A stretch of 62,140 nucleotides of DNA. Source: an uncultured Hyphomicrobiales bacterium. GTDB lineage: Bacteria; Bacteroidota; Ignavibacteria; Kapaibacteriales; UBA2268. Below, one piece after another: positions 12,192 to 58,799 of this stretch. Under the pieces are notes generated by a model. It was not told the origin of the DNA and searched no databases. It saw nothing but the letters and a program-made list of their open reading frames with translations. The stretch lies in NCBI GenBank assembly GCA_964454445.1, contig CAYVTD010000013.1:1-62140 (forward strand), in the 5' to 3' direction. Numbering within the stretch: the stretch's first letter is position 1; each line of letters begins with the position of its first letter. Both the position numbers and the translations under genes were made by a program.

Positions 12192-12542
12192 TTATTGATG
12201 ATCTTTGGGATTCTCACCATACTGGTTTTCGCCAGGCTTGCTGTCCATAACAAATAATATCAATAACACCAAAGCACCCAAAAAAGGAACAAGACCTATT
12301 AACATTAGCCAACCGGACTGACCAATATCATGCAATCTACGGACACCAACGGCTAATCCCGGTATTAAAACAGCCAATCCATATAAAATGCTTAATATTC
12401 CGAAGAGCCCGAGCAGAGTGTCGATAACTCCGAGTATTAATCCTATGATCAAGTTAAACAAGGCAAAAAACCAGAATTCGCTGCGCCTCGAACGTCCCTC
12501 GAATTGAGCATATTTCTTTAATGCAAGTAGATACCAATTCAT
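12192..12542 (-). CDS. DUF805-family inner-membrane protein
   Basis: RSEFWFF...GVRRLHDIG motif, with flanking TM helices characteristic of DUF805 (YhaH/YhaI-like). Confidence 0.8.
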   Translation of the reverse strand: MNWYLLALKKYAQFEGRSRRSEFWFFALFNLIIGLILGVIDTLLGLFGILSILYGLAVLIPGLAVGVRRLHDIGQSGWLMLIGLVPFLGALVLLILFVMDSKPGENQYGENPKDHQ

Positions 12543-12853
12543 AATTTATCCTCCAATTAGTGAAAAAAGGTGAATTCAAACAAAAAGAAACACATATGCT
12601 TTATTATAAAATAAATTTCAAAAAAGATTTAAGTAAATTACAAAAATACAATCGACAAAACAAAGAATTTATTATATTGGCATTATATTTTTTTATAAGC
12701 CCGCAAAACAAACTCTAATTAGATAGTTATGAAAAAAAAGTAAATATATTAAATTTTTTATTCAAATACTTCAAATAGTTTTAGTATTTTAAAAAGTTTG
12801 TAAATGTCAAAAACAGAGAAAGAGTTTATATCTAAACGTTGAGAGGAGATTTT

Positions 12854-15238: not shown

Positions 15239-17731
15239 ATGTCAAAAGGCGGCGGCGCAGGAAAAGTGTACTTTGTTCTCTATCTTGCTGTTGTTCTTGA
15301 GCTTTTGATTATTATCGTCGAGCGTGACGAAGCTGAAGAACACCTGTTGAAAAAGCAAAAAGAGACAATGAGGATTGTTGAAAGTATTCTCCAACAATTA
15401 CAATCAGGTTCGGGTACTGAAGGTATCAATACTCGACCACAAGACGAAATAACTTTTCTCCCTGAGGGTTTTAACTCACAGCAAGAATTAAATGTTGATA
15501 TTAAACAATATAGGAAATACATTGTCGAAGTTGGTGTAACAGATATAACTAATGAGTTAAAATGGGACAAGAACTCAGGCGAATCTCAAACAGATTTCAC
15601 CGTGCGACTGAAAAAACTAGTTAAACTTGCCAATGTTCAAGAGATTGAATATCAATTATTCTTCAATGATAGCGATGATCCAAATAATGCTCCAGCATTT
15701 ATTTCTGAAGATACAATAAAGAAAAATAGAATAGATTTCACAAAAATGACTGCCGGTGATGAAGTTTATGCGTGGGATGGCACTCCTTGGAAATTCTTGG
15801 GGCTAAGGAAGCTTGTCCTCGATGATGGATTAACCTATAACAATCTGTTAAAGAATCATAGTATCGAAAATCTTACTTCTGATATGATTGTTCCAGAATA
15901 TCCATTAAACAAACGGATAACTATTGGCCCAAATTTCGCGCCTAAAGACATTGATACTAACTTTATATTCCACTATACTGGTGATTTAGATAGTCTTGCT
16001 GATAATAAAATTATTAGCTCATCAACCTCGAAGAAAAGGTCATTCTTTGTTTATTTCGAACCACCACGCCAAGCCGGCTGGTACAAATTGAGATTTGCTT
16101 CGCAAACTAACAGAATTTTAGGTGTCAAATCTGATGCCAATTACGAAGAACTGCCTGAAAACACAACTGTAAATATTGGTACTGTCCAGCTTACAGTAAA
16201 GGATTTAAGGAAGGTTATGAAAGAGCTTACGTCTACTCTTGAAAAATATCGTGATTTTCTCCCCGATTTTGAGGCATTCGCCAGGGACAAAGACGTAGAA
16301 AAATTTAATATGGGTTTAGTAAAATGCAAATCGATGACAGATAAAAGGGAAGAAACGAATACCGAATCTAAGGAAATGCAAAGTAAAATTGATCTCTATG
16401 GCTATATTGCCAAACTTCTTGCTCCTGGTCAATCGATTAACTTTGATCAAAACCGTGGTTCGATTGAGTTTAATATTCGCGTTACAACTCTGAATATGCC
16501 GCCAACAAAACCAAGTGTTTCTGGTCTTCCAAGCTACATTGCTTGTTTCGACAAGTTGCCGCCAGTATTCGAATTTGAAATAGGTCCTTTCCAGGGAGTA
16601 GATAAAAATAAGGTTTTTGGTAGGGTGCTTAATTCTAAAGGCGTTGAAGTAGCAAAAATAAATTGCACTTTGTCGTCTCAACAGTCTGTCGTGGCAAGTG
16701 CTTCCTCAGAAATCGGGAAATCACGAAAATACATTGGCACCGTCGATAGGGTTCTTGATGTTGCAGAAAAGAACTATATTATTGAGATTACTCATAATAT
16801 GGGATCTCAGAAAGCCGCAATTGATTCGGCAGATCTCGAGATATTTCCTTCGAAGATTGTAAATGAAGCCGATGTAATGAATAACTTTTCCGGGAAATAT
16901 AGTAACTCATATTATGGCGAGAAAGTTAATGTGTCGTTCAAGCCAGCATCGGGAAACAAACTAATTCCCGAACAATTTAGAACTTATCTTTTTACAGATC
17001 AAGAAACACAGCCAGTGCCACAAAGAGGTTTTTCAAACAGTGTGAACTGCGATGCGAAGTCGAATAACATAACATTGAGATTTACTTGGGTTCAGCCATT
17101 TACAAATACCGAGATTGACTTGTATCCTCAGGTCTCTGAACCAATTAAGCAAAGGCCCCCAAGAATAAATCAAAACAATAAAAACAAATCAATAACCGGA
17201 CCAGAGAATAGGATTTTAGTTGTTGTTTCTGGTATTATCATACCTGGCAGTTCTACGGGTAGCGCCGATAAACCTAAATCTGAAGTTGTTGTTGATAAAA
17301 CTATTAAAGTCAATACAGATAATCTTCTTAATGTAAAATCCTCAACAGCTTCGCCTGTAAGAGTAATAGAAGAAGGAGACGATAAATACAAGTTCTCATT
17401 CGAGTTGAGTGTCAAAATGGCTGATATGAAAAACTCAATAGATGGCAATTTAAGTTTTGGAGTTTCTGCTTATTCAATTAATCCTGTAAATAACAAATCA
17501 TCGGATAGAGAAACTGTTACAGTTACAATCCCAATGGATGATTTTTCACCCGATGGATTAGGTAGCTCCGGAGGCAGTTCTGGAGTTCCGGGCGGTAGAG
17601 GTTTACCTTCAAGAGGTAGTGGCGGCGGGACCCCACCACCTCCAGGCGGCGGTAGTGGCGGCGGAAGTGGGACCCCACCACCTCCAGGCGGTGGTAGTGG
17701 CGGCGGGACCCCACCACCAAGAGGAAGATAA
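15239..17731 (+). CDS. Large inner-membrane-anchored periplasmic protein with a GldM/PorM-like N-terminal TM motif (assignment tentative) and a Gly/Pro-rich repetitive C-terminal tail
   Basis: Short cytoplasmic N-terminus (MSKGGGAGK) and one TM helix VYFVLYLAVVLELLIII (compare GldM/PorM MINLMYLVFIAMLAL). A helical segment follows, then a large beta-rich periplasmic region. The tail is GGGTPPPPGGGSGGG repeats. AGGA Shine-Dalgarno upstream and a 335-bp AT-rich upstream region. Confidence 0.4.
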   Translation: MSKGGGAGKVYFVLYLAVVLELLIIIVERDEAEEHLLKKQKETMRIVESILQQLQSGSGTEGINTRPQDEITFLPEGFNSQQELNVDIKQYRKYIVEVGVTDITNELKWDKNSGESQTDFTVRLKKLVKLANVQEIEYQLFFNDSDDPNNAPAFISEDTIKKNRIDFTKMTAGDEVYAWDGTPWKFLGLRKLVLDDGLTYNNLLKNHSIENLTSDMIVPEYPLNKRITIGPNFAPKDIDTNFIFHYTGDLDSLADNKIISSSTSKKRSFFVYFEPPRQAGWYKLRFASQTNRILGVKSDANYEELPENTTVNIGTVQLTVKDLRKVMKELTSTLEKYRDFLPDFEAFARDKDVEKFNMGLVKCKSMTDKREETNTESKEMQSKIDLYGYIAKLLAPGQSINFDQNRGSIEFNIRVTTLNMPPTKPSVSGLPSYIACFDKLPPVFEFEIGPFQGVDKNKVFGRVLNSKGVEVAKINCTLSSQQSVVASASSEIGKSRKYIGTVDRVLDVAEKNYIIEITHNMGSQKAAIDSADLEIFPSKIVNEADVMNNFSGKYSNSYYGEKVNVSFKPASGNKLIPEQFRTYLFTDQETQPVPQRGFSNSVNCDAKSNNITLRFTWVQPFTNTEIDLYPQVSEPIKQRPPRINQNNKNKSITGPENRILVVVSGIIIPGSSTGSADKPKSEVVVDKTIKVNTDNLLNVKSSTASPVRVIEEGDDKYKFSFELSVKMADMKNSIDGNLSFGVSAYSINPVNNKSSDRETVTVTIPMDDFSPDGLGSSGGSSGVPGGRGLPSRGSGGGTPPPPGGGSGGGSGTPPPPGGGSGGGTPPPRGR
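17617..17722 (+). repeat. GC-rich ~42-bp tandem repeat (about 2.5 copies), in frame, encoding GGSGGG(S)GTPPPPGG
   Basis: ggtagtggcggcgg(aagtgg)gaccccaccacctccaggcgg recurs three times. It is strikingly GC-rich within an AT-rich genome and forms the C-terminus of the 830-aa protein. Confidence 0.8.
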
Positions 17732-17817
17732 TTATTATTATGCTAATGAAGAACTAAAAAAATTGACGATATAATTTAAAAATAATAATTTTTTATAGTA
17801 ATAGGGAAAGAATTATA

Positions 17818-19617
17818 ATGAGAGGGAAAAGAATAAGGTTAATTATCTCCATAGCTGCCTTGCTGATTTTTTCTCAATCTGCTCCACCATTAAAAGCTAA
17901 TGACGCTATAAATGACCCCGAAATCGAGCGGATTTTGAGAAGCTTTAAAAATTATCGCTTCAGCAATGTGTCTTTGTATGCTTATGATGAGATATCAATG
18001 CCTTTCGAGCAACTAAAAAAAGCTGTCGAATCGTTTTCAAATACTAGAAAAGGTGGCGCTACAGCAGTAACAGACGAGACAGTCAAAAATGCCTGCACTA
18101 GTCTTAGTGCTTCGGCAGGCAGAGATATTTGTCTTGAGATTGAATCTGCTATAAAAGGTGGGCAAAGCTGCCAGCAGGTGTTTAATAGCTTTAGCCAGCA
18201 AGGTATTGCTCTTAATCAAAATGAATTTGAAACCGCTTGTAGTTTTTACGATGAACAAATAAACAAGCGTTCAAATGAAGTAGTAATGCGACATGCTTAT
18301 ATCGTTACTTCAAGGCCTACTAAACAAGGGGACAATCCAAGTGAAATATATGCTTTGATTGTATCATATAATAGAAAAGATGGTTTGGAAGATAATCTTG
18401 AATCTGCTAACGCAGAAGAAATTTTTACAAAATATAGATTAAAGAATATTAAGCTTGACCCCGGAGAATTCGAAGGTGCTACCAGCTTCTATGAACTAAT
18501 TGAAAGATCACTACTCCAAGGATTAGTAACTAATAGCACACCAGATATGCAAGGTATTGGTTTCTATGATTTTACTCCACGAAGCAACAATATGACTAAT
18601 ACCCTTGAAATTGACCCAGCTACTATTCAAACTTATGACCTTCAGAAATATGTTATGCTTTCTGAAGGCAGTACTTATTTTAGTGAGAATTTCAATCAAC
18701 TTATACTTAGCCCAGATTTAATATCTTGGAAAAAATACAAGGATGTGAGTTGGTATCATGCCGAATATACCGACGAGAATGGGCAAGTTGTGAAATATCA
18801 AGCATATCCATCAAATTTTAATTTACCGGATATAGGCTTAGAAATCAGTTATGGCATAAATGACATCAATATCCCATCTTTTTGGAGCGAGCGAATTACT
18901 GCTTCAGCATTATGGCAAAGCGTAAAATTAGGCATTATTCTTCCTACTGCAGGCTACTCAAGCATAATGAAAGATGCTTTCGATCAAGACAGGACCTTGA
19001 CCAATGCCGGATTTGGTATTGCTGGAGAACTCGATTTTCCAATAGGTTTAGTAAAAAATAGTGGCGTTTTCCATATTAGTGCTGCTTTGAACTTCGGTGA
19101 TGCCGTTATTGCTGACTACAAGAATAGACCTAAAGATCCTTTGCTGATAGATAGTTCTTATTTTATACGTGGTGCAGATTTTTATGACTATCTCATAAGG
19201 GGAAATGCAACTGTACACTATACTTTTGGGCTGGCAATCGACCAAGATTATTGGATGCGTTTCCATATGGGCATATCGTATTACAATGTAGAGTATTGGT
19301 TTAATGATATTAAAACAGATCCAGTAACACAAGTGCAAAAGTTCAAATACATAGAATATAAAGATGAAAGTATTGTAGGGATTTCCGGTAAATTGGAGTT
19401 TATGTCCACAAACACAACCACACCTTTTGGTCTATCGTTATCCTATTTTGATGCAGCACTCGGAGCTAACGTATGGATGCAGATACCAATTGTTGAAAAC
19501 ACTTTTGCTTTGAAATTAGAAGGTAATGGTTACTTTGCTGCATTCCGAGATAATTTGCATAACTGGGAACGTAATAGCGTGTTTATACCGATGTTAAGGT
19601 TTATGGTTTACTTTTAG
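17818..19617 (+). CDS. Outer-membrane protein: periplasmic N-terminal domain plus C-terminal beta-barrel (paralog A)
   Basis: Signal peptide. The C-terminal half has amphipathic beta-strand periodicity (GFGIAGELDF, ATVHYTFGLAI, FGLSLSYFDAAL) and a terminal aromatic ...MLRFMVYF typical of OMP barrels. Confidence 0.55.
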   Translation: MRGKRIRLIISIAALLIFSQSAPPLKANDAINDPEIERILRSFKNYRFSNVSLYAYDEISMPFEQLKKAVESFSNTRKGGATAVTDETVKNACTSLSASAGRDICLEIESAIKGGQSCQQVFNSFSQQGIALNQNEFETACSFYDEQINKRSNEVVMRHAYIVTSRPTKQGDNPSEIYALIVSYNRKDGLEDNLESANAEEIFTKYRLKNIKLDPGEFEGATSFYELIERSLLQGLVTNSTPDMQGIGFYDFTPRSNNMTNTLEIDPATIQTYDLQKYVMLSEGSTYFSENFNQLILSPDLISWKKYKDVSWYHAEYTDENGQVVKYQAYPSNFNLPDIGLEISYGINDINIPSFWSERITASALWQSVKLGIILPTAGYSSIMKDAFDQDRTLTNAGFGIAGELDFPIGLVKNSGVFHISAALNFGDAVIADYKNRPKDPLLIDSSYFIRGADFYDYLIRGNATVHYTFGLAIDQDYWMRFHMGISYYNVEYWFNDIKTDPVTQVQKFKYIEYKDESIVGISGKLEFMSTNTTTPFGLSLSYFDAALGANVWMQIPIVENTFALKLEGNGYFAAFRDNLHNWERNSVFIPMLRFMVYF

Positions 19618-19664
19618 TGGAAATAATTTTTGAATAATCAGTAGGAAAATAAAAGGCATACAAA

Positions 19665-21179
19665 ATGATGAAAAAAATCAAAATAACAGTTTTATTAGTA
19701 GCGTTTTTCCTCATCGGATTGAGCAATATTCAAGCTCAGTATTTTCAACCTGAACAGGAAAAACTGCAAACAATAAAGGATTTATCAACTCTTGATTCTA
19801 GTATAAGCAGGTATTTCCCGAGATGGAAGGTTTGTGAAGATAATTTAAAAGTTTCAATTTATCAGGCATTTGTGCTTAGTGGCGCAGATAAAGAGCTACT
19901 CGATATGCAAGACATTAGGATACTTGCCGCGCCGAGGCCAATAGGCAGCAATATACCTTTTACTATTTTATTAATTGAATGTGGCAAAGCTTCGATGAAT
20001 TCTGTTGAAGTCGAACGCAATCTTGGTGGTAGGTTAATAGGCTTTATTGCCGGACAATATCCCTATATCCAATATACAAAAACTCCTGGTATGGCACTTA
20101 GGAACGAATATATTGATAATAGAGACTATTGTTACGAAACAATACCAGCAGATATTCCTGTCAATGAGAGCCAAATGACAGCTATTCAAGGTTATCTCGA
20201 ACCAATCAATGTTCACCATGCCTTTACTGTGTCTTTATTTGAACAGAGTTTGAAAATTGGCAATACTGGATTTTGGCTTAAGGCAACTATGGGTAACGAT
20301 GAGATTGGTTATCCATTCTGGTCATCAGGCGAAGCAGGGATTACCTTGTCAAGACCTTTATATGTAAACGAGAATCCTAAATATAAACGAATGTTTCCAT
20401 ATCTTATTAATGCTCATATAGGAGCCGGTTACAGAATCTCTAGCGGTGTTGGCAATGATAGCGAAATACTTGGCTGGATAAAACAGAGGAAATTGAATTC
20501 TGGTCCTTATGGAAAATTGCATGCCGGTTTCGATATTAGTTTGCCACAACATCCATTTTTTGGTCTTAGTGCAAATGCTATACTTCCTTTTGAATCTTTG
20601 AAAACCAAGAGTATAGATGAATCTGACTATACTTATTATTCTATTGTTAATCCAAAAACGGGATTGCCAAGAGTAACTCCCAGCATTTATTTCCCAAGTG
20701 AAGTCGCTGAGTTTTATAATACAGTAGCTCCAGTATTAACATCTTCAGGGCAGGTTGCATTTTTTTATTATTGGATGCCAAATATGAATAATCCTGAAAA
20801 CTTTTTTAGGGTTGACCTTGGCATTTGCTATACAGAAGTACAAGAGGTTGGTGCTTATAGAATATTTACTAATGAATATAAGGAATTTACTCAATCCTTC
20901 AATATGTCACCTGATTTGTTTGACGGATTAAAGATGTACCATCCGACAGAATTTGGTGACTGGTTCTTTTTTAAATTGCAATATAGGAATCAAGCAGCTT
21001 TTCCATTTGGTATGAGTTTGCAATATTCTAACCAAATGCTCTTGGGCAGAGTCTATATCCCACTACTTGGCGATTGGCTTTACCTTGATGCAAAATATGC
21101 AACTCCTCTAAGAGGTGTTCGTCCTTATGAAAACCAAAGTTTCTATGTGATTTCTCCTTTGCTTAGGATTACGATCTAA
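19665..21179 (+). CDS. Outer-membrane protein: periplasmic N-terminal domain plus C-terminal beta-barrel (paralog B)
   Basis: Signal peptide and the same architecture as the upstream gene. The C-terminus SFYVISPLLRITI aligns with NSVFIPMLRFMVYF of paralog A, and both share an internal FWS-containing motif. Confidence 0.55.
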   Translation: MMKKIKITVLLVAFFLIGLSNIQAQYFQPEQEKLQTIKDLSTLDSSISRYFPRWKVCEDNLKVSIYQAFVLSGADKELLDMQDIRILAAPRPIGSNIPFTILLIECGKASMNSVEVERNLGGRLIGFIAGQYPYIQYTKTPGMALRNEYIDNRDYCYETIPADIPVNESQMTAIQGYLEPINVHHAFTVSLFEQSLKIGNTGFWLKATMGNDEIGYPFWSSGEAGITLSRPLYVNENPKYKRMFPYLINAHIGAGYRISSGVGNDSEILGWIKQRKLNSGPYGKLHAGFDISLPQHPFFGLSANAILPFESLKTKSIDESDYTYYSIVNPKTGLPRVTPSIYFPSEVAEFYNTVAPVLTSSGQVAFFYYWMPNMNNPENFFRVDLGICYTEVQEVGAYRIFTNEYKEFTQSFNMSPDLFDGLKMYHPTEFGDWFFFKLQYRNQAAFPFGMSLQYSNQMLLGRVYIPLLGDWLYLDAKYATPLRGVRPYENQSFYVISPLLRITI

Positions 21180-21196
21180 TTGGGATTGATTTATAA

Positions 21197-21243
21197 AATA
21201 CTCCCTATAACAACTGTATGCCTTGTTGGGGAGTATTTTTTTT
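21197..21243 (+). terminator. Rho-independent terminator (long stem-loop with inner helix)
   Basis: AATACTCCC ... GGGGAGTATT outer stem, with an AACAA/TTGTT inner stem, followed by a T8 run. It lies 18 bp after the stop at 21179. Confidence 0.55.
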
Positions 21244-21263
21244 AACATTGGCGTATTGACAAA

Positions 21264-22598
21264 ATGAAACGAACTCTTTTTATTATTATCTTTTCTTTGC
21301 TTTTTTTAGCTAAAGCTTTTTCCATCGAAGGAACTGTTGATGCCGATTCGCTCGACAGAGCTTTGAAATTAGCTCAAGAAGCTAAAATTCAAGCTGTTCA
21401 AAAGGAAATTGAAATAACTATAAGAAATGTTGATATTTCAAAATTTCCTGAGATTAATGTTATTATCGAGGCATTTAACAATTTAGGACAACCCTTGGAT
21501 TCATTAAGCCCTCAAAGCTTGACTGTATTGGAAAATGGCGTAGTGAAAAAGATAATTTCTGTAAAAAGGCTTTCTACAAATGAACGTGTTCCCGTAGACT
21601 TTGTCTTTTTAATTGACAAAACAGGTACGATGCAAAACTATATGAACTCTGTTATGAGCAATATTACTAGCTTTGCCACATCGCTGATGGCTCGAGGTAT
21701 TGATTATCAGATTGGACTTATTTTGTTTACTGACACTGTGGACGAGATCTATCAACCATCAAATAACGTTCTATCTTTTCTTAATTGGTTACGTCCTGTA
21801 AAAGCCACTGGTGGACACGATATCAAAGAGAATGCTTTAGAAGCTTTAGAAGCAGTCACACGTGATATAAAATTCCGTCCATCTGCTAATAAGGTCGTTG
21901 TTTTAATAACTGATGCCCCTTATCATCAAAAGGGCGATAAGGGAGGATATGGGATTACCGACCAGACAACAAGTTCAATAATTGATTTACTTGTTAAGAA
22001 TGAAGTGCGCGTTTTTGCCATTGTGCCACCGGGTTTAAAAGAGTATCTAACTATAAGTGAAAGTACTCGTGGAAAGATGTATAACATAGATTATCCATTC
22101 GCAACTGTTCTAGATAATTTCTCAAATCAGCTTACTAATCTTTTTGCTTTAAAATATCTTACTGAACTCGAAGCCATACCGGATTCGATTGATATCTCGC
22201 TTATTAACGAACAAAAGCAAGAGCTTGTCAGGAAAACTATCCCCATTGTTGAATTAGGAAGAAAACTTATAATCGAGAATTTGCTTTATGAAACCAACAG
22301 TGCCTTGCTAGCAGATTCTATACCTGAACTTAATGTTTTATATGAATTTATGAACAACAAGAAAAACGTTAAGATACTTGTCGAAGGGCATACTGATTCA
22401 AGGGGTAGCCACGCTATTAATGATGTGCTATCGTTGAGACGCGCAGAAAGTGTAAAAGAATATCTTGTTAAAAAAGGCGTAAACCCCGACAGAATTGCAA
22501 CTATCGGATATGGTAAACGCAAGCCCATTGCAAGTAATAATACTGCTTTTGGAATGAAGCTTAACCGTAGAACTGAGATAGTAATTGTTGCAAAATAA
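21264..22598 (+). CDS. Periplasmic vWA-domain protein with C-terminal OmpA_C-like peptidoglycan-binding domain
   Basis: Signal peptide. The vWA region has a MIDAS-like DKTGT...VVVLITDAPYH. The C-terminus VEGHTDSRGSHAINDVLSLRRAESVKEYL...NRRTEIVIV is a classical OmpA domain. Confidence 0.75.
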   Translation: MKRTLFIIIFSLLFLAKAFSIEGTVDADSLDRALKLAQEAKIQAVQKEIEITIRNVDISKFPEINVIIEAFNNLGQPLDSLSPQSLTVLENGVVKKIISVKRLSTNERVPVDFVFLIDKTGTMQNYMNSVMSNITSFATSLMARGIDYQIGLILFTDTVDEIYQPSNNVLSFLNWLRPVKATGGHDIKENALEALEAVTRDIKFRPSANKVVVLITDAPYHQKGDKGGYGITDQTTSSIIDLLVKNEVRVFAIVPPGLKEYLTISESTRGKMYNIDYPFATVLDNFSNQLTNLFALKYLTELEAIPDSIDISLINEQKQELVRKTIPIVELGRKLIIENLLYETNSALLADSIPELNVLYEFMNNKKNVKILVEGHTDSRGSHAINDVLSLRRAESVKEYLVKKGVNPDRIATIGYGKRKPIASNNTAFGMKLNRRTEIVIVAK

Positions 22599-38674: not shown

Positions 38675-39634
38675 ATGCTTGAAAAAAAAATTCGCGTTTT
38701 GATAGTTGATGATCAAGCATTGGTTCTTGATATTCTAGCAAGGGGATTAGCAAAAGACCCATCAATATTAGTAGTAGGCACAGCGACAGATGGTCAGCTT
38801 GCACTTAATCAGATAGACCGAGTAAATCCGGATGTAATAATTCTCGACCTTGAGATGCCACGTATGAACGGGATACAGTTTTTGCATCATCTTATGCCTG
38901 TAAATCCGATTCCAACAATAGTTTTGAGTGCTTTAACCCAGAATAATTCGAAGGTTACCGTAGATGCTTTCGAGGCGGGTGCTTTCGATTTTCTTGCAAA
39001 ACCAAGCGGTGGAGCACGAGCTTTGTCTGATTTGTTAAATCAATTATGGACAAAAATCAAAATTGCTGCAACTCAAGATAGAAGGCAGCTAAAAAAGAGT
39101 AATCTTGGCAAGTCTTTGCCTTCCAATGCTCTCGACAGAAAGGCAGTAACAAATAAAAGCATTCTTGGAATGGGGGCTTATGAAACATCAAATGACCCTG
39201 GAAAAGATTTGAAAATCTATGCTCTAGGTTCTTGTGTCGGGCTAGCTATGTTTTGTCAAGGAATGCCTGCTGTAAGTCTTGCTCATATAGTCTTGCCTGC
39301 ATCAAAATCGGATACTGACAAAGCCCAAAAACTACCGGGTTATTTTGCTGATACTGCGGTTGATGTTATGGTTATGGGAATGCTGCAAAAAGGTTGTCCA
39401 AAGCAAGCTTTGTATGCCAAAATGGCTGGTGGGGCAAAAACGAACGTCGATATCGGCGATTATTTTGGTATTGGGCAACGCAACGCTGTTGCAGTGAAAG
39501 CAGCATTGATAAAACAGGGGATAAAAGTAGTAGCAAGCGACCTTGGAGGCGAAATATCTAGAACTGTTACTATATCGGCTGGTAAAAGCAATATGAGGCT
39601 TTACCATCCTGACAAGGGAGATTGGGATTTATAG
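38675..39634 (+). CDS. Receiver domain fused to a CheD-like chemoreceptor glutamine deamidase domain
   Basis: N-terminal REC domain VLIVDDQ...ILDLEMPRMNG. The C-terminus has IYALGSCVGLAMF and AHIVLP (CheD Cys/His) and GGAKTN...GQRNAVAVKAAL...DLGGEISRTV, matching CheD. Confidence 0.65.
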   Translation: MLEKKIRVLIVDDQALVLDILARGLAKDPSILVVGTATDGQLALNQIDRVNPDVIILDLEMPRMNGIQFLHHLMPVNPIPTIVLSALTQNNSKVTVDAFEAGAFDFLAKPSGGARALSDLLNQLWTKIKIAATQDRRQLKKSNLGKSLPSNALDRKAVTNKSILGMGAYETSNDPGKDLKIYALGSCVGLAMFCQGMPAVSLAHIVLPASKSDTDKAQKLPGYFADTAVDVMVMGMLQKGCPKQALYAKMAGGAKTNVDIGDYFGIGQRNAVAVKAALIKQGIKVVASDLGGEISRTVTISAGKSNMRLYHPDKGDWDL

Positions 39635-41276: not shown

Positions 41277-42776
41277 TTAATCATATATAAAATACTCGCT
41301 TTTTTTACCCCGTTTATCTACAGCTCTTGCTCGAAATCGAAAGGGTTGATCATCTTTCAAAGGAGTTAACATAAAAAACTGCTTATTACTATTACGTTTT
41401 AAGTTATCAGATTGAATATTTGGGAAATACTCCTGCCATTTTGCATTACCGATTATTTCAATATCAGTTACTAAATTCTTTTCACCTCTGTATAATCCTT
41501 GCGAAACAATTTCAAACGTGATTAACCGAGCGCTTTTTTCATTGAAATTAGCAATCGAGGGAGGTGGCAAGGGCATAATTTTTATGGGATAAGTCTGCCC
41601 GATCTTTTTTCCATTAACATATCTTTCTATGGACACGGTTTTGTCGATAAGATCAGTATTGGGCGTATATTCGAAAGTCGAACCTTGCCGACTTGTAAGG
41701 ATTATATTGTTGTCCACAGTAAGCACAACTTTTACATCTTGTCCGGGTAAAGAGGGGAGCTTTGGATCGATGGTATAAGTGTTGTCAGGATACATTTCTG
41801 CGTCGTAATCTGGCTTGAAAAGAGGTTCTGGGATTATGCTAAAGTCAGTCATTACTTCCCGTTTATCATATTTTCTCGTAAGTTTAAGCTTGACGTTTGT
41901 TCTACCTGATGATGGGGTAGTGCCACTAAGTTTTATTTCATTGGCTGTAATGCCAGAAATATAGGCATTCCCGGCACCTGAAACGGCTAATTCGGGCAAT
42001 TCGGCAAGGTCTTTCTGCGGGTTTAGTCCAATGACAATTATTCGGTTTTCCCATTGTTGATTGGCAATGCTTCTCAAGGGTGAATGGACTGTATAAAGCG
42101 ACATATCCCCAGTATAAAATTCAGAATTAGTTCTTAAGTCTGCTTTTGTGGAATTAGCTTTCGCAGAATCGGCGGCCAAATCGACATTGTCGGAAGGCAA
42201 ATAAATAACATTACCTGGTCGATTAACATAAACAGCGAGACGAAATTGAGCCTTCTTGACTATTGTCGGCAGAGTCGAGCTACCGGTTTTTTCTAGCAAG
42301 CTGTCCGACAAGTTGGTAGGATTAGCCCTTGCTGTAACGTTTACGATGTAGTTTTTATTCCTTCTTTCGTAAATGGGAGGTTTCCAATAGAACTTAACGA
42401 GATTGTTATCTAAGTTATGAGTTATATTGAAATCGCTCGATTCATAATCTTTGTCTGTTTCAAGCATTATACTGTTGTTAGTTTCCTCGTCGGTTATTGT
42501 AAAGAGCATCTTTACATTTTTGACTGCGCCAGAATAATGAATTGTGTTTTCGGCATCAAATTCAGAGATCCTTACACCCGAAGAATCGATATATAGGCGA
42601 CAGCTCAGGGAGGGTTTAACAGGATTAATAATAAAGCCGGCACTAGTTTCGTCGAAAGCATCTTTATTGCCTTTTTTGTCATTATGCAAATCAGGCAATA
42701 TTAGAATCAAGGCAGCCAAATAGAGGATAAAATAAACCTCTACCGGACCGCGTTTTTTTATTAATGTCCTGCTCAT
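41277..42776 (-). CDS. Inner-membrane-anchored periplasmic protein with GldM/PorM-like N-terminal TM motif (paralog of 15239..17731; tentative)
   Basis: MSRTLIKKRGPVEVYFILYLAALILIL shares the VYF(V/I)LYLA core with the 830-aa protein. One TM helix is followed by about 470 aa of beta-rich (Ig-like?) periplasmic sequence. Encoded 54 bp downstream of the GldL-like gene. Confidence 0.4.
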   Translation of the reverse strand: MSRTLIKKRGPVEVYFILYLAALILILPDLHNDKKGNKDAFDETSAGFIINPVKPSLSCRLYIDSSGVRISEFDAENTIHYSGAVKNVKMLFTITDEETNNSIMLETDKDYESSDFNITHNLDNNLVKFYWKPPIYERRNKNYIVNVTARANPTNLSDSLLEKTGSSTLPTIVKKAQFRLAVYVNRPGNVIYLPSDNVDLAADSAKANSTKADLRTNSEFYTGDMSLYTVHSPLRSIANQQWENRIIVIGLNPQKDLAELPELAVSGAGNAYISGITANEIKLSGTTPSSGRTNVKLKLTRKYDKREVMTDFSIIPEPLFKPDYDAEMYPDNTYTIDPKLPSLPGQDVKVVLTVDNNIILTSRQGSTFEYTPNTDLIDKTVSIERYVNGKKIGQTYPIKIMPLPPPSIANFNEKSARLITFEIVSQGLYRGEKNLVTDIEIIGNAKWQEYFPNIQSDNLKRNSNKQFFMLTPLKDDQPFRFRARAVDKRGKKSEYFIYD

Positions 42777-42830
42777 CGTTAATAGATTTTTACATAAAAA
42801 TCAATATTTCTATGAAATAAAGTGCATCAA

Positions 42831-43613
42831 TCACTCGATTTTACTCGAGATTAGTTTTTCAAGCTCTTGTTTTACAGCTAATTGGATTTCTTCGCGTTTT
42901 ATTTTTTCAGCAGCTTTGTTCAATTCGTTTACAGTATGATTTAATTGTGAAAGCGCCTCGTTAGTTAATTTCATTGTTTCGAGCATCTCGGGATTGGGCG
43001 ACACAGCGTCGGAGGCAGATTTGGCAATAAGTTGCAAAGCATCATTAGTTCGGCTCTGGGTAGAGGCAATGATGCTGAAATTTTCGTTGATACGCTCAAT
43101 CTGAATTATTGCTCCGGCAAGGTCTTTTGCAATTTCACCAATCTCGAGCAAAAGCTCGGCGGCATTTTCGCGTTCATTGTCCTTGTCTTTATCTGAAAAA
43201 TCGTCTTTTGGTGTGAAAAACATCACAACAAACATAAAAAACAGCAAGCAGGATTCGAGTGCCAAAGCGGCGATTATTGCTGTGTCGCTGATACTATTGC
43301 TAAATCTTCTGACACCTATTAATAATAGCAAGATTGATGCACCGAAATAAACGAATGAGTTAATGGAAGAGAAATAAAACCGATTTAGGATTTCTTCCAT
43401 CCACAAACCGGTGCCTCGAAAAAAGCCTAATGGATGCAGTACGCTGACATTTCTATTAAGATAAGGGCTCAGATCTCTTTCGTGAACGCTAATTTTCCAG
43501 CATTGGATCAAAGTGCTGAAGGCACTGTATTGCCTGCTGTAACGGAGCTCCTTGAAAATTTCATTGATAAGCGTCCTGCCTTGCATAGAGGATAAAGTAT
43601 CGATTTTGTCCAT
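42831..43613 (-). CDS. GldL/PorL-like membrane protein (two TM helices plus cytoplasmic coiled-coil domain; tentative)
   Basis: TM1 FVYFGASILLLLIGV and TM2 AIIAALALESCLLFFMFVVMFF contain a membrane-embedded Glu. A helical domain rich in A/E/L/K follows. The ATG at 43613 avoids overlap with the upstream gene (the track start at 43691 overlaps by 64 bp). Confidence 0.4.
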   Translation of the reverse strand: MDKIDTLSSMQGRTLINEIFKELRYSRQYSAFSTLIQCWKISVHERDLSPYLNRNVSVLHPLGFFRGTGLWMEEILNRFYFSSINSFVYFGASILLLLIGVRRFSNSISDTAIIAALALESCLLFFMFVVMFFTPKDDFSDKDKDNERENAAELLLEIGEIAKDLAGAIIQIERINENFSIIASTQSRTNDALQLIAKSASDAVSPNPEMLETMKLTNEALSQLNHTVNELNKAAEKIKREEIQLAVKQELEKLISSKIE

Positions 43614-43627
43614 AAATTTTTCGTTTG

Positions 43628-44707
43628 TTAAGTCTTTGTTTTTAATAAAACGATAAGTCCAAAAATAAAGAATAAAATGTTTGCTAGCCATCCAGTCAGC
43701 ATTTCATCTAATCCGGCAGAAAAGCCAATGGTTTGGCTTATTTTTGTAAAAACCAGATATAGAAAAGAGATAATCATAGCGGCGCCGATTTGAATTGCAA
43801 GACCTCCTTTTTTTCTAACTGAAGCAAAAGGCACTCCGAACAAAATTACAATAAAATTTGCGAATGGAAAGGCATAATTGCCATGATACTCTATTTGCTG
43901 CCTGCGTATATCTTTGCCGCCCATCTTTAATAGCTCTATATACTGTTTAATTTCATCGAAATTCATTTCGCTGGGCGATCGTTTTAACTGAATTATTTTG
44001 TTGTGTGTTATATTAAGAGAAATTTCGAGGGAATCGAACCTGTCCGAGCTTATTTTGCTGTTATTGATGTAGCGAATAATGCCTGAGCGGGCAATCCATT
44101 TATGTTTGTCATCTGACCAAATAAGCCTGTCTGTTTCAATTCTTTGACTTATTCTTGGTTGTTTCTCGGAAGTATAATCTTCAATAGTAACGCGAGTTGC
44201 TGACTTAGTTCTTTCGTCGTAATATTGCATTATTACGTTTCTCAAGGGTTTATCGCGGAAATAAATATTATAAAGCCCCATACCGCTAGAGCTTTTTCCG
44301 AGATATACTCTCTCAAGCTCGATTTTTCGCTCGTTTGCCTTAGGTACTATCCAACCGTTAAAATAAAGTTGGGCAAAACTTAAAACGATGCTGAACAAAA
44401 CAAGAGGTATCATTAGCCGGTAAAGGCTCAAACCTCCTGATTTCATTGCAGTTATTTCGTTCATTGTAGAAAGCTTGCCAATAGTGAACAAAGTAGCAAG
44501 CAACATCGCTACGGGCGTCATAATTGACAATATATATGGGAAAAAATTAATATAATATTCGACTATTTCTAAAATACCCGCATTGTGGTCGATGAAATCG
44601 TCGAGTGTTTCCATCAGATTGACTATTAAAAAGATTAGGCACAGAGCTATTAATGAGAATAATAATGTCGAAATTAATTGTCGTAATATATATCTATCAA
44701 TTAGCAT
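43628..44707 (-). CDS. LptF/LptG-family LPS export permease (YjgP/YjgQ)
   Basis: N-terminal MLIDRYILRQL signature and six TM segments with a large periplasmic beta-jellyroll insert. Only one copy is in the window. Confidence 0.85.
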   Translation of the reverse strand: MLIDRYILRQLISTLLFSLIALCLIFLIVNLMETLDDFIDHNAGILEIVEYYINFFPYILSIMTPVAMLLATLFTIGKLSTMNEITAMKSGGLSLYRLMIPLVLFSIVLSFAQLYFNGWIVPKANERKIELERVYLGKSSSGMGLYNIYFRDKPLRNVIMQYYDERTKSATRVTIEDYTSEKQPRISQRIETDRLIWSDDKHKWIARSGIIRYINNSKISSDRFDSLEISLNITHNKIIQLKRSPSEMNFDEIKQYIELLKMGGKDIRRQQIEYHGNYAFPFANFIVILFGVPFASVRKKGGLAIQIGAAMIISFLYLVFTKISQTIGFSAGLDEMLTGWLANILFFIFGLIVLLKTKT

Positions 44708-44725: not shown

Positions 44726-47017
44726 TTATATGCTGATAATTTCAATATTCCAATTAATGACGTTTTTCTCTGTATCTACTTTTATTACCTTGGCATTTTG
44801 CAAATAACCATAAGAATCGGAATAGGGATAATTATCTAAAGTCAAAGTGGCTCCATTTGCGGAAAGCTCGATTATTGAAGTGTTACGCTTTATAACAGCT
44901 TTTTTTTGATTTAATTCTATTTCACATAAAGCTAGTGGGTGTAAATGGAAAGAAACAGTTTTTTTACCTTTCTGCTCGAGGGAGTCTTCTCCGGAGATAT
45001 GATTGAGCTTGAACTCAATCTTTCGTGTATGTGCAACTCCAAAACCGCGATGCTCGCCGACGAAAAAGCTATTTCCTGTTTGCAAATGTCTAGCCTTTGT
45101 CCTGTCTTTTACTATCCAAAACAAATCGTCTTTGTCGCGGCTATTCCACAAGTTTTGCTCTTCATCGTCAAAACCAAGAGTATTGTGCATTTTTACAGAG
45201 CGGAAGAGATTTCGCTTTTCGTGGATAGCAGTGTAAAGATATGTGCCTGGATCAACAAAAATTGCTTTACCACCGCAAGTCAAGCACAAAGACAACTGGT
45301 CGTTGTGCGAATGTCCGCCTTTACCCTTTTGCCCAATACTGCCACACCTGACGTAAGCCCGATAGTAATGACAATCATAAATAAACAAGCCGAAATCTGG
45401 TAATTCAATTGCTTTAGGTTGATTTATGTTTGTGTTTTCTTGAATTTCTTGACGGTCAAAAAGCTTTAAGTCTTTTTTTTGAAGTGAAGTAAGGTAGGAT
45501 TGATTATTAATACTGCTTCCATAAAATAAAGAGATAAACTCTGAAATAGATTGTTTGCCAGTAGTGTTTTTTTTAATAAACTTACCTGCTTCAGTGAATT
45601 TGATATTTTCTTTGAAATTTAAGTAATCTGCAATAGTTTTTTTGTCAGTAAACGAATAAGGAAGTTGAAGCATCAGGAAAAAGCCCCCATCATTGTCGCC
45701 GATTTGAGCTGTTTCTGAGTTTACATCTAAAATGGCTTCAGAAAACTCAATTATTTTTTTAAATTTTGAATAAAAAGTTTCTGACAATAATATTTTTTTT
45801 GTTGCTAAATCAATTTCAAATCTTTGCTTGCTCTTTGGCAGTAATTTCTTTTTTCCTTGCCAGCTTTTTTTGTCATAATGGTCTAATGAAAGGGTTTTTT
45901 CTTCAGGTAAAGCATTAATAATATAAACACACCACATCAGAGTTTCACAAGCAAAAAGGTGGTAGCTCGATGATGCCTCGAAATTGCCGCCATCGTCGAG
46001 GAACTGATATTCTATTTCGTTGTTTAACTCCTGCAGGACAAACGACAAAGTACTTGTGGATTCGCAATTAGTCGGCAGATAAGCAGTAAGGAAGAGCAAT
46101 CCAGCCAAGTTAAGCAAATAATGGTTGCCGCGCATACCGCTGGACCATTCGAGGTTATCAATTATGAATTTTTTATGATCGCGGAGCGAAGCTATGAATA
46201 ATCTCCTGAAAACTTTGTCTTCTGAAAAACCTAATTCGCAAAACAAGTCATAAGCAACTAACCAGTTGATAGCTCTAAGTGATACATCCATAGCGGTCAT
46301 CCATTGCACTCCGAATCGAGGTGGATTAGAAGAAATAAAGCACAATACTTGATTTTTAAATTCTTTATAATAATCCGTCGGGTTGCGGAAGCCCTCAAAG
46401 CCTCTGAGCGAACAAGCAGCGGCATAAGCAAAATAGGGGAGATGCTGCATTCTGCCGAGTTCCCAAGGCACTCTTATATCAGCTCCCAAAAGATGCCCAT
46501 ATTGAATATCTTTGTGCCAAATGCTTTCCTTCCATCGGTAACCTGACTTAAAGTCGAGTTGCCAATCAATAGGCTTGTAATTTGCGTCGATTAGCAAGTA
46601 GATCTCTTGGGATTTTTTGAAATTATTTGATGAAAGGTGGGATTGCAGCCATTTTTTTCTGTCAAAAATGTTTTCTTCAAAACTGTATTTATAGTCCTCT
46701 ATGCCATAAGCTCTCATTCCTGGGTAAACTCTTATCCATCCCGAACCAAATAAATTGAAGTAATGCTCATAAAATAAATCACTTAATTCCTTGATCAAAG
46801 GAGCATTTTCTTTTAAAAACTCGTCTGAAGGGATTGTAACGTAAGAAAAAGGAAAATCCTCTGAAGTTTCTGAAGGTTCTGAATAAGTGGAGGCTCGCAT
46901 ATCTGACATTTTTGCTATGGAGTTGGCATAATTTTTATAAGCCCAAGCCCAAAGTTTCTTAAATGCAATATTTGGCGAAAGCCGTAGCCCCTTTGATATG
47001 AGATTAAGTATCTCCAA
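44726..47017 (-). CDS. Heparinase II/III-family protein (no signal peptide)
   Basis: C-terminal GGHSHNDQLS motif and an alginate-lyase-like (alpha/alpha toroid) N-terminal region. Confidence 0.65.
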   Translation of the reverse strand: MEILNLISKGLRLSPNIAFKKLWAWAYKNYANSIAKMSDMRASTYSEPSETSEDFPFSYVTIPSDEFLKENAPLIKELSDLFYEHYFNLFGSGWIRVYPGMRAYGIEDYKYSFEENIFDRKKWLQSHLSSNNFKKSQEIYLLIDANYKPIDWQLDFKSGYRWKESIWHKDIQYGHLLGADIRVPWELGRMQHLPYFAYAAACSLRGFEGFRNPTDYYKEFKNQVLCFISSNPPRFGVQWMTAMDVSLRAINWLVAYDLFCELGFSEDKVFRRLFIASLRDHKKFIIDNLEWSSGMRGNHYLLNLAGLLFLTAYLPTNCESTSTLSFVLQELNNEIEYQFLDDGGNFEASSSYHLFACETLMWCVYIINALPEEKTLSLDHYDKKSWQGKKKLLPKSKQRFEIDLATKKILLSETFYSKFKKIIEFSEAILDVNSETAQIGDNDGGFFLMLQLPYSFTDKKTIADYLNFKENIKFTEAGKFIKKNTTGKQSISEFISLFYGSSINNQSYLTSLQKKDLKLFDRQEIQENTNINQPKAIELPDFGLFIYDCHYYRAYVRCGSIGQKGKGGHSHNDQLSLCLTCGGKAIFVDPGTYLYTAIHEKRNLFRSVKMHNTLGFDDEEQNLWNSRDKDDLFWIVKDRTKARHLQTGNSFFVGEHRGFGVAHTRKIEFKLNHISGEDSLEQKGKKTVSFHLHPLALCEIELNQKKAVIKRNTSIIELSANGATLTLDNYPYSDSYGYLQNAKVIKVDTEKNVINWNIEIISI

Positions 47018-49284: not shown

Positions 49285-50016
49285 TTAGCGAGAAATACTA
49301 AAAGTTCCTTTATTTACAATGTTTTTCTGGCGGCTGATGATGTAATAATAAACACCGGCAGAAAAATCTCTTGTTTTCAATGTCAATACATCACCATTTA
49401 TCTGATAATTGGCATTATCAATTCTGTTGGCGTGAGAATTATAGACTTCGATGTCCAATCCAGATAAATCTGAAATAGAAGGAAGTGATATATTTATATA
49501 ATCGTTAGCAGGATTGGGGAATACAGGCGCACTCGATTGGGTGGTTAATTCTAAAACGGAAGTGGTGCCTACGTTGTATGAGCACTCGTAAGCCACATAA
49601 TCGTCTTCGTTAACCATAAAGTAAAACTTGACTTTCGATGTGCCGAATTTCCCGTTTGGATAAAGATGCACGAACAATTCTAATCCGTTTTCTGCTGTGG
49701 TCGATTCTCCAGGTTCCAGAGAAAACACTTCATCAGGTCGGTCGTAAATGGTAACAGGCGGAAAGAACTGACGGCACTCGAAATTGAAGCATGGGCTGAG
49801 AGTGTGCCCATCGACTAGACTAATTGTCTCGATTTTGATATAAATTGTTACTTTATGGTTGCTAATGTTTTTCACATCGCCATAAGAAACAAGCTCGTTG
49901 GTTAAGGTGCCGCTTACAATTTCGTCTCCACGAATTAGCTCGAGGCTTTGTGATTTTGCATTAAAAGATGCAAGAATAAATAGAAGGCAGATTGTATATA
50001 GTAGATTTTTCATCAT
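49285..50016 (-). CDS. Small secreted protein with T9SS C-terminal sorting domain
   Basis: Signal peptide. The C-terminus FPNPANDYINISLP...LDIEVYNSHANRI...SAGVYYYIISRQ...KGTFSI matches Por_Secre_tail. Confidence 0.7.
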   Translation of the reverse strand: MMKNLLYTICLLFILASFNAKSQSLELIRGDEIVSGTLTNELVSYGDVKNISNHKVTIYIKIETISLVDGHTLSPCFNFECRQFFPPVTIYDRPDEVFSLEPGESTTAENGLELFVHLYPNGKFGTSKVKFYFMVNEDDYVAYECSYNVGTTSVLELTTQSSAPVFPNPANDYINISLPSISDLSGLDIEVYNSHANRIDNANYQINGDVLTLKTRDFSAGVYYYIISRQKNIVNKGTFSISR

Positions 50017-57539: not shown

Positions 57540-58799
57540 TTAATGATTTTTCTCATAGACCTTACGTGCGCGTTCTTTGTATATTTTTTCTTTATCGTAA
57601 TTTCCAGATAATCCAAAAATCAAGCTCAGATTGACTAATGCGTCGTAATGGTTTGGTTCGAGATATAATGCTTTTTCGAAATACTCAGCAGCAAAATTTA
57701 CATCATTTATTGCATTGCAAAGCACTCCCATTAAATAAAATCCATTTGCATCACCGGGGAATTTTTTAATGTATAAACTACATTCTTCTTTTGCTTTGAT
57801 TATGCTGCCTGAATCGGCTAATCTCTGGATTTCATAAAGAGTGTCCTTTTCTTCGACAGTTTGAGTTAATGGCGGTGATAGTACTTCGTTTATTTTTTGG
57901 ATTTGCTTTGTTTCAGATTTTTCTTTTTTAATGGCAGGTCTCTGTTTTGGGTTAGGGTGAGTATGCGCTATTGCATTGAAAATAAATTCTTTCGTTTTTT
58001 TTATGTTATTGCTGTGGTTAGATTTTACCAAGGCAAACGAGCGTGGCTCTTTGACGCTAGAAAAACCTTGAGTTGTAAAGATAGGGATTTCTGTATGTCC
58101 GGCAAACAGTACTCCGTCGGGCTTAAGCAGCTGTCGAAGCTTGGTAATAGTTGCCAATCGGGCATCTTCATTTAAATAAATTAGTAAGTTTTTACAAAAA
58201 ATCACATCGTAATATTGATATTTTGATAGGAAATCCTCTTTTAAGATATTAGAATGAAAGAAATTTATTTGGTTTTTTATATTATTGTTAATAAAATAAT
58301 TACCTTCTTTTTCTTTGAAGTAATGATAAACAAAAGTCTCGATAAATGGACGAAATGAAGCTTTTCCGAAGCTCCCTTCTTTTGCTTTTTCAATATTCTT
58401 TTTACTTATATCAAGAGCATCTATACTAAATCTATCTGTAGGCAATCCTGCTTCAAACAATGAAATTGCAATGGAATATGGCTCTTCGCCCGTGGAGCAG
58501 GGAGCGGATAAAATCCGCACTTTTGCAGGATAGAGTAAACGCTTTGTAATAATGAACTTTTTTAGATAGTCGAACGGTCCCCTATCGCGAAAAAACCAAG
58601 TTTCGGGGACTGTTATTTCTTCTATTAATTGCTCAAATTCTTTCTCCCGGAGGACAAGTAATTCAGAATACTGCTGCTCTGACATTAAAAAATGGCTTGC
58701 AGCTCGACTGACGGCGGCTTCGATTGTCCTTCTTCCAATGGATTCAGGTGCCAAGCCGGTTTCTGTAGCGAGCAGTATTTCTATTTCGTTTATATCCAA
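57540..58799 (-). CDS. cheR: CheR-type protein-glutamate O-methyltransferase with C-terminal TPR repeats
   Basis: TWFFRD, LSAPCSTGEEPYSIAI and the SAM-binding region, followed by a TPR-like helical C-terminus. Confidence 0.8.
   Translation of the reverse strand: MDINEIEILLATETGLAPESIGRRTIEAAVSRAASHFLMSEQQYSELLVLREKEFEQLIEEITVPETWFFRDRGPFDYLKKFIITKRLLYPAKVRILSAPCSTGEEPYSIAISLFEAGLPTDRFSIDALDISKKNIEKAKEGSFGKASFRPFIETFVYHYFKEKEGNYFINNNIKNQINFFHSNILKEDFLSKYQYYDVIFCKNLLIYLNEDARLATITKLRQLLKPDGVLFAGHTEIPIFTTQGFSSVKEPRSFALVKSNHSNNIKKTKEFIFNAIAHTHPNPKQRPAIKKEKSETKQIQKINEVLSPPLTQTVEEKDTLYEIQRLADSGSIIKAKEECSLYIKKFPGDANGFYLMGVLCNAINDVNFAAEYFEKALYLEPNHYDALVNLSLIFGLSGNYDKEKIYKERARKVYEKNH

Follow-up and report, generated by a model that had tools for sequence, protein, structure and literature searches.

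A stretch of 62,140 nucleotides (contig CAYVTD010000013.1 of assembly GCA_964454445.1, from the Kapaibacteriales lineage UBA2268; hereafter the window) carries on its minus strand two adjacent genes, here called A and B, which a reading of the sequence alone had proposed to encode a divergent ion-driven motor akin to GldL/GldM (PorL/PorM). The strand of the pair and the 54 bp between its two genes are as seen in the open reading frame (ORF) list. A and B close a run of four genes on the same strand (heparinase II/III-like, LptF/LptG, A and B), past which lies a BadF/BcrAD-type kinase gene convergent to the run (Table 1); all three kinds of neighbour had already been named in the sequence-only reading and were matched in a Pfam scan. 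The ORF track extends A to a frame of 42831-43691, which overlaps the ORF of the LptF/G permease by 64 bp. The ATG at 43613 had been preferred to this longer frame, and we take it as the true start because the 120 homologs listed are nearly all 257-281 aa long and align from its Met1. Only 14 nt separate the LptG stop codon from this ATG, and LptG and A probably belong to one transcription unit. When the operon was scanned for promoters and terminators, the counts were not above those of shuffles.

Table 1. Genes and transmembrane (TM) segments discussed in the text; coordinates are those of the window unless a locus is named. LPS, lipopolysaccharide; res, residues.
Feature	Position	Strand	Remarks
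Protein A	42831..43613	-	260 aa; proposed GldL-like subunit
TM1 of A	43302..43373	-	res 81-104; near-invariant V-Y89-x-G91-A92-A
TM2 of A (AIIAALALESCLLFFMFVVMFF)	43218..43286	-	res 110-132; motif G-x-x-x-E-A-L-x-L
Protein B	41277..42776	-	499 aa; candidate periplasm-spanning subunit
TM helix of B	42696..42743	-	V-E13-I-Y15-F16-x-L18-Y19-L-A-A-L; Glu13 codon 42738-42740
LptF/LptG-family LPS export permease	43628..44707	-	Pfam LptF_LptG 5.7e-79
Heparinase II/III-like protein	44726..47017	-	Pfam Hepar_II_III_N/C; first gene of the same-strand run; context only
830-aa B' paralog	15239..17731	+	TM KVYFVLYLAVVLELLIIIVERDEAEE; Lys in place of the Glu of B, Glu inside the TM
C/D genes after the pair	L084 4008-6492; L090 12197-14686; L096 5121-7507

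A pattern scan in which each GTDB species was represented by a single genome detected relatives of A in 157 species, nearly all of which bear the titles of Kapaibacteria, Ignavibacteria or 'Chlorobiota' metagenome-assembled genomes, and 80 loci were fetched. A homolog of B lies directly 3' of A, on the same strand, in 76 of the 80, the commonest overlaps between the two genes being 1, 4 and 11 nt; for a set of 83 loci the count is 79. The other four of the 80 loci comprise two that stop at a contig edge, one (L077, 10795-12232) in which no ORF of 100 aa is present in the 1.4 kb after A, possibly the trace of a decayed gene, and one (L078, 10888-12375) in which an unrelated secreted protein of 495 aa stands where B would be expected. 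The A proteins of L077 and L078 both have the RR of the loop motif altered to NN or NR. Since the flanking genes vary between loci, the pairing of A and B is not merely frozen synteny. The same arrangement was found around distant relatives of A (25-32% identity), sampled in loci L084/L085, L086, L087, L088, L090-L096 and L100, where a B homolog lies directly 3' wherever downstream sequence existed. Searches of these distant partners with the B profile gave E-values of 1e-31 to 1e-49 in most loci, and of only 7e-7 and 7e-5 for the most divergent ones, those of L087 and L100. Conservation of the two genes as a pair in related genomes, a check that had been suggested for the motor proposal, was thus found both in the fetched loci and in the distant lineages.

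The family is small. A profile of residues 1-142 of A, run against 1.84 billion cluster representatives, returned 105 matches at E<=1e-3, 29 of them at E<=1e-30; the weaker matches keep the core of helix and hairpin (VYxGAA...G-x-x-x-E-x-x-x-L...P) and differ in their N-terminal parts, some having added TM helices. One multi-TM relative (P0352, locus L089) has no B partner and stands alone. A and B are an uncharacterised inner-membrane protein pair of Kapaibacteria/Ignavibacteria and relatives, of which we found no description in the literature searched on GldLM or type IX secretion system (T9SS) parts in Ignavibacteria/Kapabacteria.

The domain layout of A was drawn from an alignment of 32 homologs and an AlphaFold2 (AF2) monomer model (predicted local distance difference test, pLDDT, 82.7). 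Residues 1-60 form a small conserved N-terminal domain, assigned to the cytoplasm, which is followed by an amphipathic helix (residues 63-79), the two TM helices and, at residues 143-259, two long helices (143-204 and 208-259) that run antiparallel in a hairpin whose SPNP tip is invariant. The TM hairpin anticipated by the sequence-only reading is therefore present, although not at the N-terminus, where it had been placed: its helices span residues ~81-104 and ~110-132, behind a stretch of ~80 aa in which G12, R13, W39, G63, G67, W71, E74, N77 and R78 are invariant. The helical C-terminal region that had also been read from the sequence is recovered in the model at a length of ~120 aa. Glu120 of TM2 (codon GAA, 43254-43256), the membrane-embedded glutamate to which importance had been attached, is invariant in the 32 close homologs and is Glu in 112 of the 113 superfamily cores, the single exception being a Gln. 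Nearly as constant in these 113 cores are Tyr89 (109), Gly91 (111), Ala92 (112) and Leu124 (111).

Protein B begins with a basic segment (R/K at residues 7-10) and a single TM helix at residues 12-27 (VEVYFILYLAALILIL), beyond which it is all-beta in the AF2 model (pLDDT 76.7), as had been proposed along with the lack of a helical D1-like domain: the beta structure starts at residue 49 and is folded into immunoglobulin (Ig)-like beta-sandwich domains at ~49-185, 226-317, 334-400 and 407-498. We judge this chain of sandwiches to be long enough to cross the periplasm. B matches no family in Pfam or NCBIfam. Its TM helix is the most telling part, as Glu13, Tyr15, Phe16, Leu18 and Tyr19 are invariant in 70 of 70 distinct sequences, a conservation so strong that the helix must be more than an anchor. 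The acid ahead of the aromatic pair is always kept in the B proteins of distant lineages, as Glu or Asp, within the motifs RRRRTTVEVYFVLYL, QRVELYFVLYL, KRVEIFFLLYL, RRRRVDIYFVLYI and RRRRFDVFFILYL. Conserved protonatable residues are accordingly found in TM helices of both subunits, namely E120 and Y89 of A, and E13, Y15 and Y19 of B.

For a comparison of A with GldL, five GldL/PorL chains of known structure in the PDB supplied the TM regions. Profile-profile alignment (hhalign) of the close A family with these five chains gave a probability of 13%, and alignment of the superfamily core (113 sequences) with 118 GldL N-termini gave 53.7% (P 1.3e-4, score 25.7). Both profiles produce the same register, in which G91-A92 of A falls on G16-A17 of GldL and Glu120 on Glu49, with Tyr89 opposite Y13 and TM2 of A aligned with G45...E49-A-L. 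The score of 25.7 compares with 8.8 for a reversed GldL profile, with a mean of 10.3 and a maximum of 16.8 over 150 column shuffles, and with a mean of 11.8 and a maximum of 23.2 over 200 shuffles made within segments so as to keep the hydrophobic layout of TM helices and loop; none of the 150 and none of the 200 reached the real score. When a hidden Markov model (HMM) of the core was searched against 5,298 sequences serving as natural decoys, its best match outside the family was the GldL chain 7sax_C (E 9.7e-4), in an ungapped alignment of 49 residues that reads '..GA......G..(K/R)......GLAxEALL..', and more than half of the 40 ranks after it were taken by GldL, which makes up only 2% of the set. 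The reverse search, of a GldL HMM against 4,537 ORFs of related genomes, placed A proteins at four of the five top ranks, with E-values (0.15-0.6) that are not significant. The GldL profile was of low diversity, as the homologs retrieved with the N-terminus of GldL as query were only close fragments from Flavobacteriia; the true GldL fragments recovered in this way all carry PF22827. A further match to 7sax_C (E 0.015), obtained in a PDB search with full-length A, is not counted here, being confined to the helical tail in a search where coiled-coil matches dominate.

The likeness of A to GldL, weak and reproducible, thus concerns the TM hairpin. Shared with GldL/PorL are the Tyr and the GA of TM1, a basic loop residue, a Glu in TM2 within G-x-x-x-E-A-L, a spacing of 29 residues from GA to Glu (as in the short-loop GldL/PorL chains) and cytoplasmic helices after the hairpin; the 260 aa of A compare with 215 in GldL and 309 in PorL. 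Unlike that of GldL, the hairpin of A starts at residue 81, behind a conserved domain, and its TM2 is four residues longer; TM2 is followed by 'TPxE...ELLxEIGEI' rather than by the GldL cage segment 'DWxxVYPEL'. The hairpin is probably a case of remote homology to GldL, or else of very specific convergence, the match being suggestive but short of what usually counts as proof of homology, and A, as judged from its sequence, lies outside the curated GldL family. The earlier view of A as GldL/PorL-like can be defended as a distant kinship of the hairpin, whose profile similarity exceeds the controls, and not for the protein as a whole, which reaches no curated model and whose architecture is altered by the ~80-aa N-terminal domain.

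For B, the likeness is one of architecture. GldM has a helical D1 domain at residues 32-232 and all-beta domains D2-D4 at 233-320, 321-405 and 406-513 (PMC5790014). B, with 499 aa to the 513 of GldM, has in common with it a basic N-terminus, one TM helix with an invariant Tyr and all-beta periplasmic domains, and its last three domains share approximate limits with D2-D4, a weak resemblance since Ig-like domains are all of about 90 residues. Residues of functional importance in the membrane core of GldLM comprise the invariant E49 of GldL and Y17 of GldM, the conserved Y13 of GldL and R9 of GldM, and K27 and H30 of the loop (bioRxiv 10.1101/2020.05.11.089193). By their positions, E120, Y89 and the loop residues R102/R103 of A, together with Y19 and the basic run of B, would be the counterparts of these residues, the B side of this correspondence not being proven by alignment. 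B adds Glu13, an invariant acid (in some lineages an Asp) placed where its TM helix meets the cytoplasm; GldM has no such acid and carries Arg9 nearby. As is the case for GldL/PorL with GldM/PorM (PDB 6YS8, 7SAT-7SAZ), A and B form a two-gene unit with the small subunit first, in bacteria of the Fibrobacteres-Chlorobi-Bacteroidetes group that encode T9SS cargo. The pair is not part of a gldKLMN/porKLMN operon, and it has a paralogous counterpart, the A'/B' module described below, whereas gldLM is single.

From this combination we put at about 0.5 the probability that A and B make up a divergent, previously undescribed GldLM-like ion-driven inner-membrane motor. Several A subunits would form a ring, each contributing a TM hairpin with the buried Glu120 and Tyr89, and this ring would enclose the TM helices, one per subunit, of a dimer of B, with their Glu13, Tyr15 and Tyr19. 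Flow of an ion, probably the proton, through the resulting protonatable cluster would shift B with respect to A; the Ig-like domains of B, four to five in a chain, would carry the motion across the periplasm to an outer-membrane partner, and the N-terminal domain and helical hairpin of A, both cytoplasmic, would anchor or regulate the complex. A 5:2 stoichiometry, ion coupling, rotation and the process that the motor would drive are inferred; this process may be type IX secretion, an attractive option in view of the cargo that these lineages encode and of the one locus with an adjacent PorU, or some different process of the envelope, to which LptG and the C/D proteins described below could point. 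The two-component ion-driven motor that had been proposed from the sequence is thus partly sustained, by the conserved unit, the invariant TM2 Glu and the weak GldL likeness, and left unsupported on the GldM side.

Several results weigh against such a motor. A matches neither PF22827 (GldL_N) nor TIGR03513 at E<=1, nor does it have any real match in a search of Pfam and NCBIfam, and among 62 distant relatives of A none matches GldL_N or another genuine Pfam family. The hhalign probability of ~54% concerns a short TM hairpin, for which convergence is possible, and a fold search with the model of A was uninformative. B shows no detectable likeness to GldM in sequence and no clear one in specific fold: its N-terminal 140 residues give an hhalign probability of 0.65% with four GldM/PorM N-termini, and the PDB profile search with B returned only YehD (E 0.05), with no GldM or PorM, so that the kinship of B with GldM/PorM suggested earlier is reduced to architecture. 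B also lacks the helical D1, through which GldM touches the ring of GldL. The charges follow another logic as well, for Arg9 of GldM faces Glu49 of GldL whereas A and B are both acidic at these sites. Nor was any gene resembling gldK or gldN identified near the pair, as the sequence-only reading had stated for the window, in loci whose neighbours were annotated for a subset only. The 5:2 stoichiometry, finally, is conjecture in its entirety.

Beyond GldLM, the pairing of a ring subunit with a bitopic subunit recalls the logic of MotAB, ExbBD, TolQR and ZorAB, and Glu13 (or Asp) of B occupies a position at the TM end similar to that of the essential acid near the cytoplasmic TM end of MotB (Asp32), ExbD (Asp25) and TolR (Asp23). 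In these systems the ring subunits, which are members of Pfam MotA_ExbB, cross the membrane three or four times, and the periplasmic part of the partner is OmpA-like or of ExbD type; A and B match neither these Pfam families nor the PADLOC models for Zorya. A Zorya-like defence system was dismissed, there being no PADLOC matches and the pair being in a conserved housekeeping position. Few families of ion-driven membrane motors that transmit force across the periplasm are known (MotAB, ExbBD/TolQR, AglRQS, ZorAB and GldLM), and GldLM has been regarded as a speciality of Bacteroidota. A small and distantly GldL-like family (~105 clusters) with another shaft would show in what way the GldL hairpin has been reused. 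The family lends itself to experiment through its two invariant acids in the membrane, its defined partners and the complete genomes in which the pair occurs (CP058732.1, OW818676.1, OW818654.1, OY761611.1 and OY762428.1).

Additional genes follow the pair in some lineages. In those of high and intermediate guanine-cytosine (GC) content the operon extends as A-B-C-D, where C and D, of ~385-440 aa, are paralogous to each other (E 1e-19 within L096) and each have a signal peptide and aromatic residues at the C-terminus. Neither matches a family in Pfam or NCBIfam, T9SS parts included, and both are predicted to be outer-membrane barrels. This envelope context, along with the PorU gene of L088 and the T9SS cargo genes of the window, speaks for the motor reading. 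The links of the pair to LptG and to these paired outer-membrane proteins may point to an undescribed envelope process. Homology of C and D to the 599- and 504-aa proteins of the window, considered in this connection, found no support, since hhalign gave 1-8% and the only blastp match covers 53 aa at the C-terminus (E 6e-4).

A second module of the same kind is seen in locus L100 (6001-12715 of GCA_964449305.1), where five genes on one strand are ordered A-B-B'-A'-B'. The A protein of this locus is the sole exception among the 113 cores, its TM2 Glu being replaced by Gln, and in the partner B the Glu is replaced by Asp; A' belongs with the distant A-like proteins and has additional TM helices at its N-terminus. 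Paralogy between B and the 830-aa protein of the window, which had been read from their N-termini, is supported indirectly. Compared directly, the two proteins are alike only in the TM motif VYF[IV]LYLA (window-scale HMM E 0.047). The N-terminus of the 830-aa protein has 50-54% identity over 46 residues to two L100 proteins (E 4e-10 and 4e-11), and one of these, the first B-like protein of that locus (g3, N-terminus KKYQVYFFLYLAVICELLIVIVERDDAE), is homologous to the B of L100 over 193 residues (E 1e-14). Because its N-terminal module is common to the B-like proteins of L100, and g3 is homologous to B, we regard the 830-aa protein as a B' paralog. The B' N-terminus showed no similarity to GldM on comparison and was discarded as a relative of it.

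The gene for the 830-aa protein is the first of four at 15239-22598 (+), the others encoding a 599-aa protein, a 504-aa protein and a protein with VWA and OmpA_C domains; the 599- and 504-aa proteins have signal peptides and barrel-like C-termini and no Pfam match. This cluster looks like a second trans-envelope system whose A-type partner was not found in the window. A small ORF at 12192-12545 (-) had drawn attention because its 'GVRRLHD...SGW' loop, set between two hydrophobic segments, matched the loop of the A profile (window-scale E 0.0056); by eye it is of DUF805 type and probably unrelated. It is possible, if doubtful, that A/B and A'/B' together form a new class among the ion-driven motors that span the periplasm, with a hairpin sharing its ancestor with that of GldL and with an unrelated shaft, which in Kapaibacteria, Ignavibacteria and allied lineages replaces GldLM in the T9SS or powers another trans-envelope machine with paired outer-membrane barrels (C/D, or the 599- and 504-aa proteins).

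Other readings of the pair have to be considered. It seems rather unlikely that A and B are the very motor of the T9SS in Kapaibacteria/Ignavibacteria and allied members of the Fibrobacteres-Chlorobi-Bacteroidetes group, replacing GldL and GldM while the equivalents of the K/N ring are encoded elsewhere; if true, the pair would be a concrete candidate for a T9SS motor outside Bacteroidia. Two proteins of the window, at 10-2307 (+) and 49285-50016 (-), have the Por_Secre_tail domain of T9SS cargo, from which it follows that the host has type IX secretion cargo, and such proteins also occur in L002, L043 and L096; proteins with this C-terminal domain are, however, so common in these genomes that their proximity means little. 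The A-B pair of L088 (5381-10254 of GCA_002405405.1) is directly followed by the T9SS sortase PorU (NF033707, 452.7 bits, above the curated cut-off), yet this is a single case, the 80 genome loci having yielded no PorU in the vicinity of the pair. The sizes of A and B match those of GldL and GldM, and divergent core parts would fit the reported distribution of the T9SS, which profile searches find only in Bacteroidetes and which BLAST suggests also for Ignavibacteriae, Chlorobi and Fibrobacteres (PMC5837995). The occurrence of A/B and A'/B' in one genome, unlike the single gldLM, and the lack of resemblance of C and D to T9SS parts or any other Pfam or NCBIfam family speak against this assignment.

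In a different account the pair would be a static scaffold or tether, or a signalling module, with B as a periplasmic spacer or adhesin-like protein held in the membrane by a conserved TM helix and A as a membrane chaperone or anchor whose coiled-coil hairpin touches cytoplasmic partners. Near-absolute conservation of Glu and Tyr in three TM helices, at 23-32% identity, is hard to reconcile with a passive anchor and is the signature of known ion-driven stators, and the match in GldL register likewise speaks against a passive role; we consider this account unlikely. It draws on the generic nature of the Ig-like repeats of B, on the fact that ion coupling is a deduction, on two sources that name homologs 'methyl-accepting chemotaxis protein' (MCP), and on the C-terminal hairpin of A, which, long, antiparallel and with a conserved tip, has as its top PDB profile match a chemoreceptor signalling hairpin (2ch7, E 4e-6). 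A differs from an MCP in having no sensor, no HAMP and no MCPsignal at curated thresholds (MCPsignal reaches E 0.067 in one homolog), and its SPNP tip is presumably unrelated to the MCP tip. The chemoreceptor matches are, moreover, mixed with designed coiled coils and look like noise of composition or heptad pattern. Quite improbable, in our view, is a role as an accessory of LPS export acting with LptF/G, for instance by regulating LptB2FG or as a bridge of the LptC/LptA kind. A homolog of the window LptG lies upstream of A on the same strand in 42 of the 80 loci, within ~300 bp of the A start in 36 and farther off in the other 6, and also in the distant, 64% GC locus L086, where LptG, A and B have 42%, 32% and 26% identity to the window proteins, LptG (4048-5130) overlaps A, to which the 14-nt gap in the window may be compared; LpxK and further envelope genes also lie nearby. 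About half of the loci are nevertheless without an LptF/G neighbour, and the pair then has unrelated surroundings (Sua5 and GyrB in L002, ACIII and OEP in L001). The Lpt bridge, besides, uses the OstA/Lpt beta-jellyroll, whereas the domains of B are Ig-like sandwiches, and no Lpt protein is among the fold matches listed; Lpt is ATP-driven, and is not known to have a partner with a membrane Glu.

The wider surroundings of the pair vary. In 19 of the 80 loci a same-strand homolog of the heparinase-like protein lies still farther 5' of A, and about 25 loci have an OEP-RDD-MFP-ABC-FtsX/MacB cluster downstream of the pair. Two chemotaxis genes are present in the window, at 38675-39634 (+) and 57540-58799 (-), one encoding a response regulator whose C-terminal half appears CheD-like by eye and the other a CheR methyltransferase with TPR repeats.

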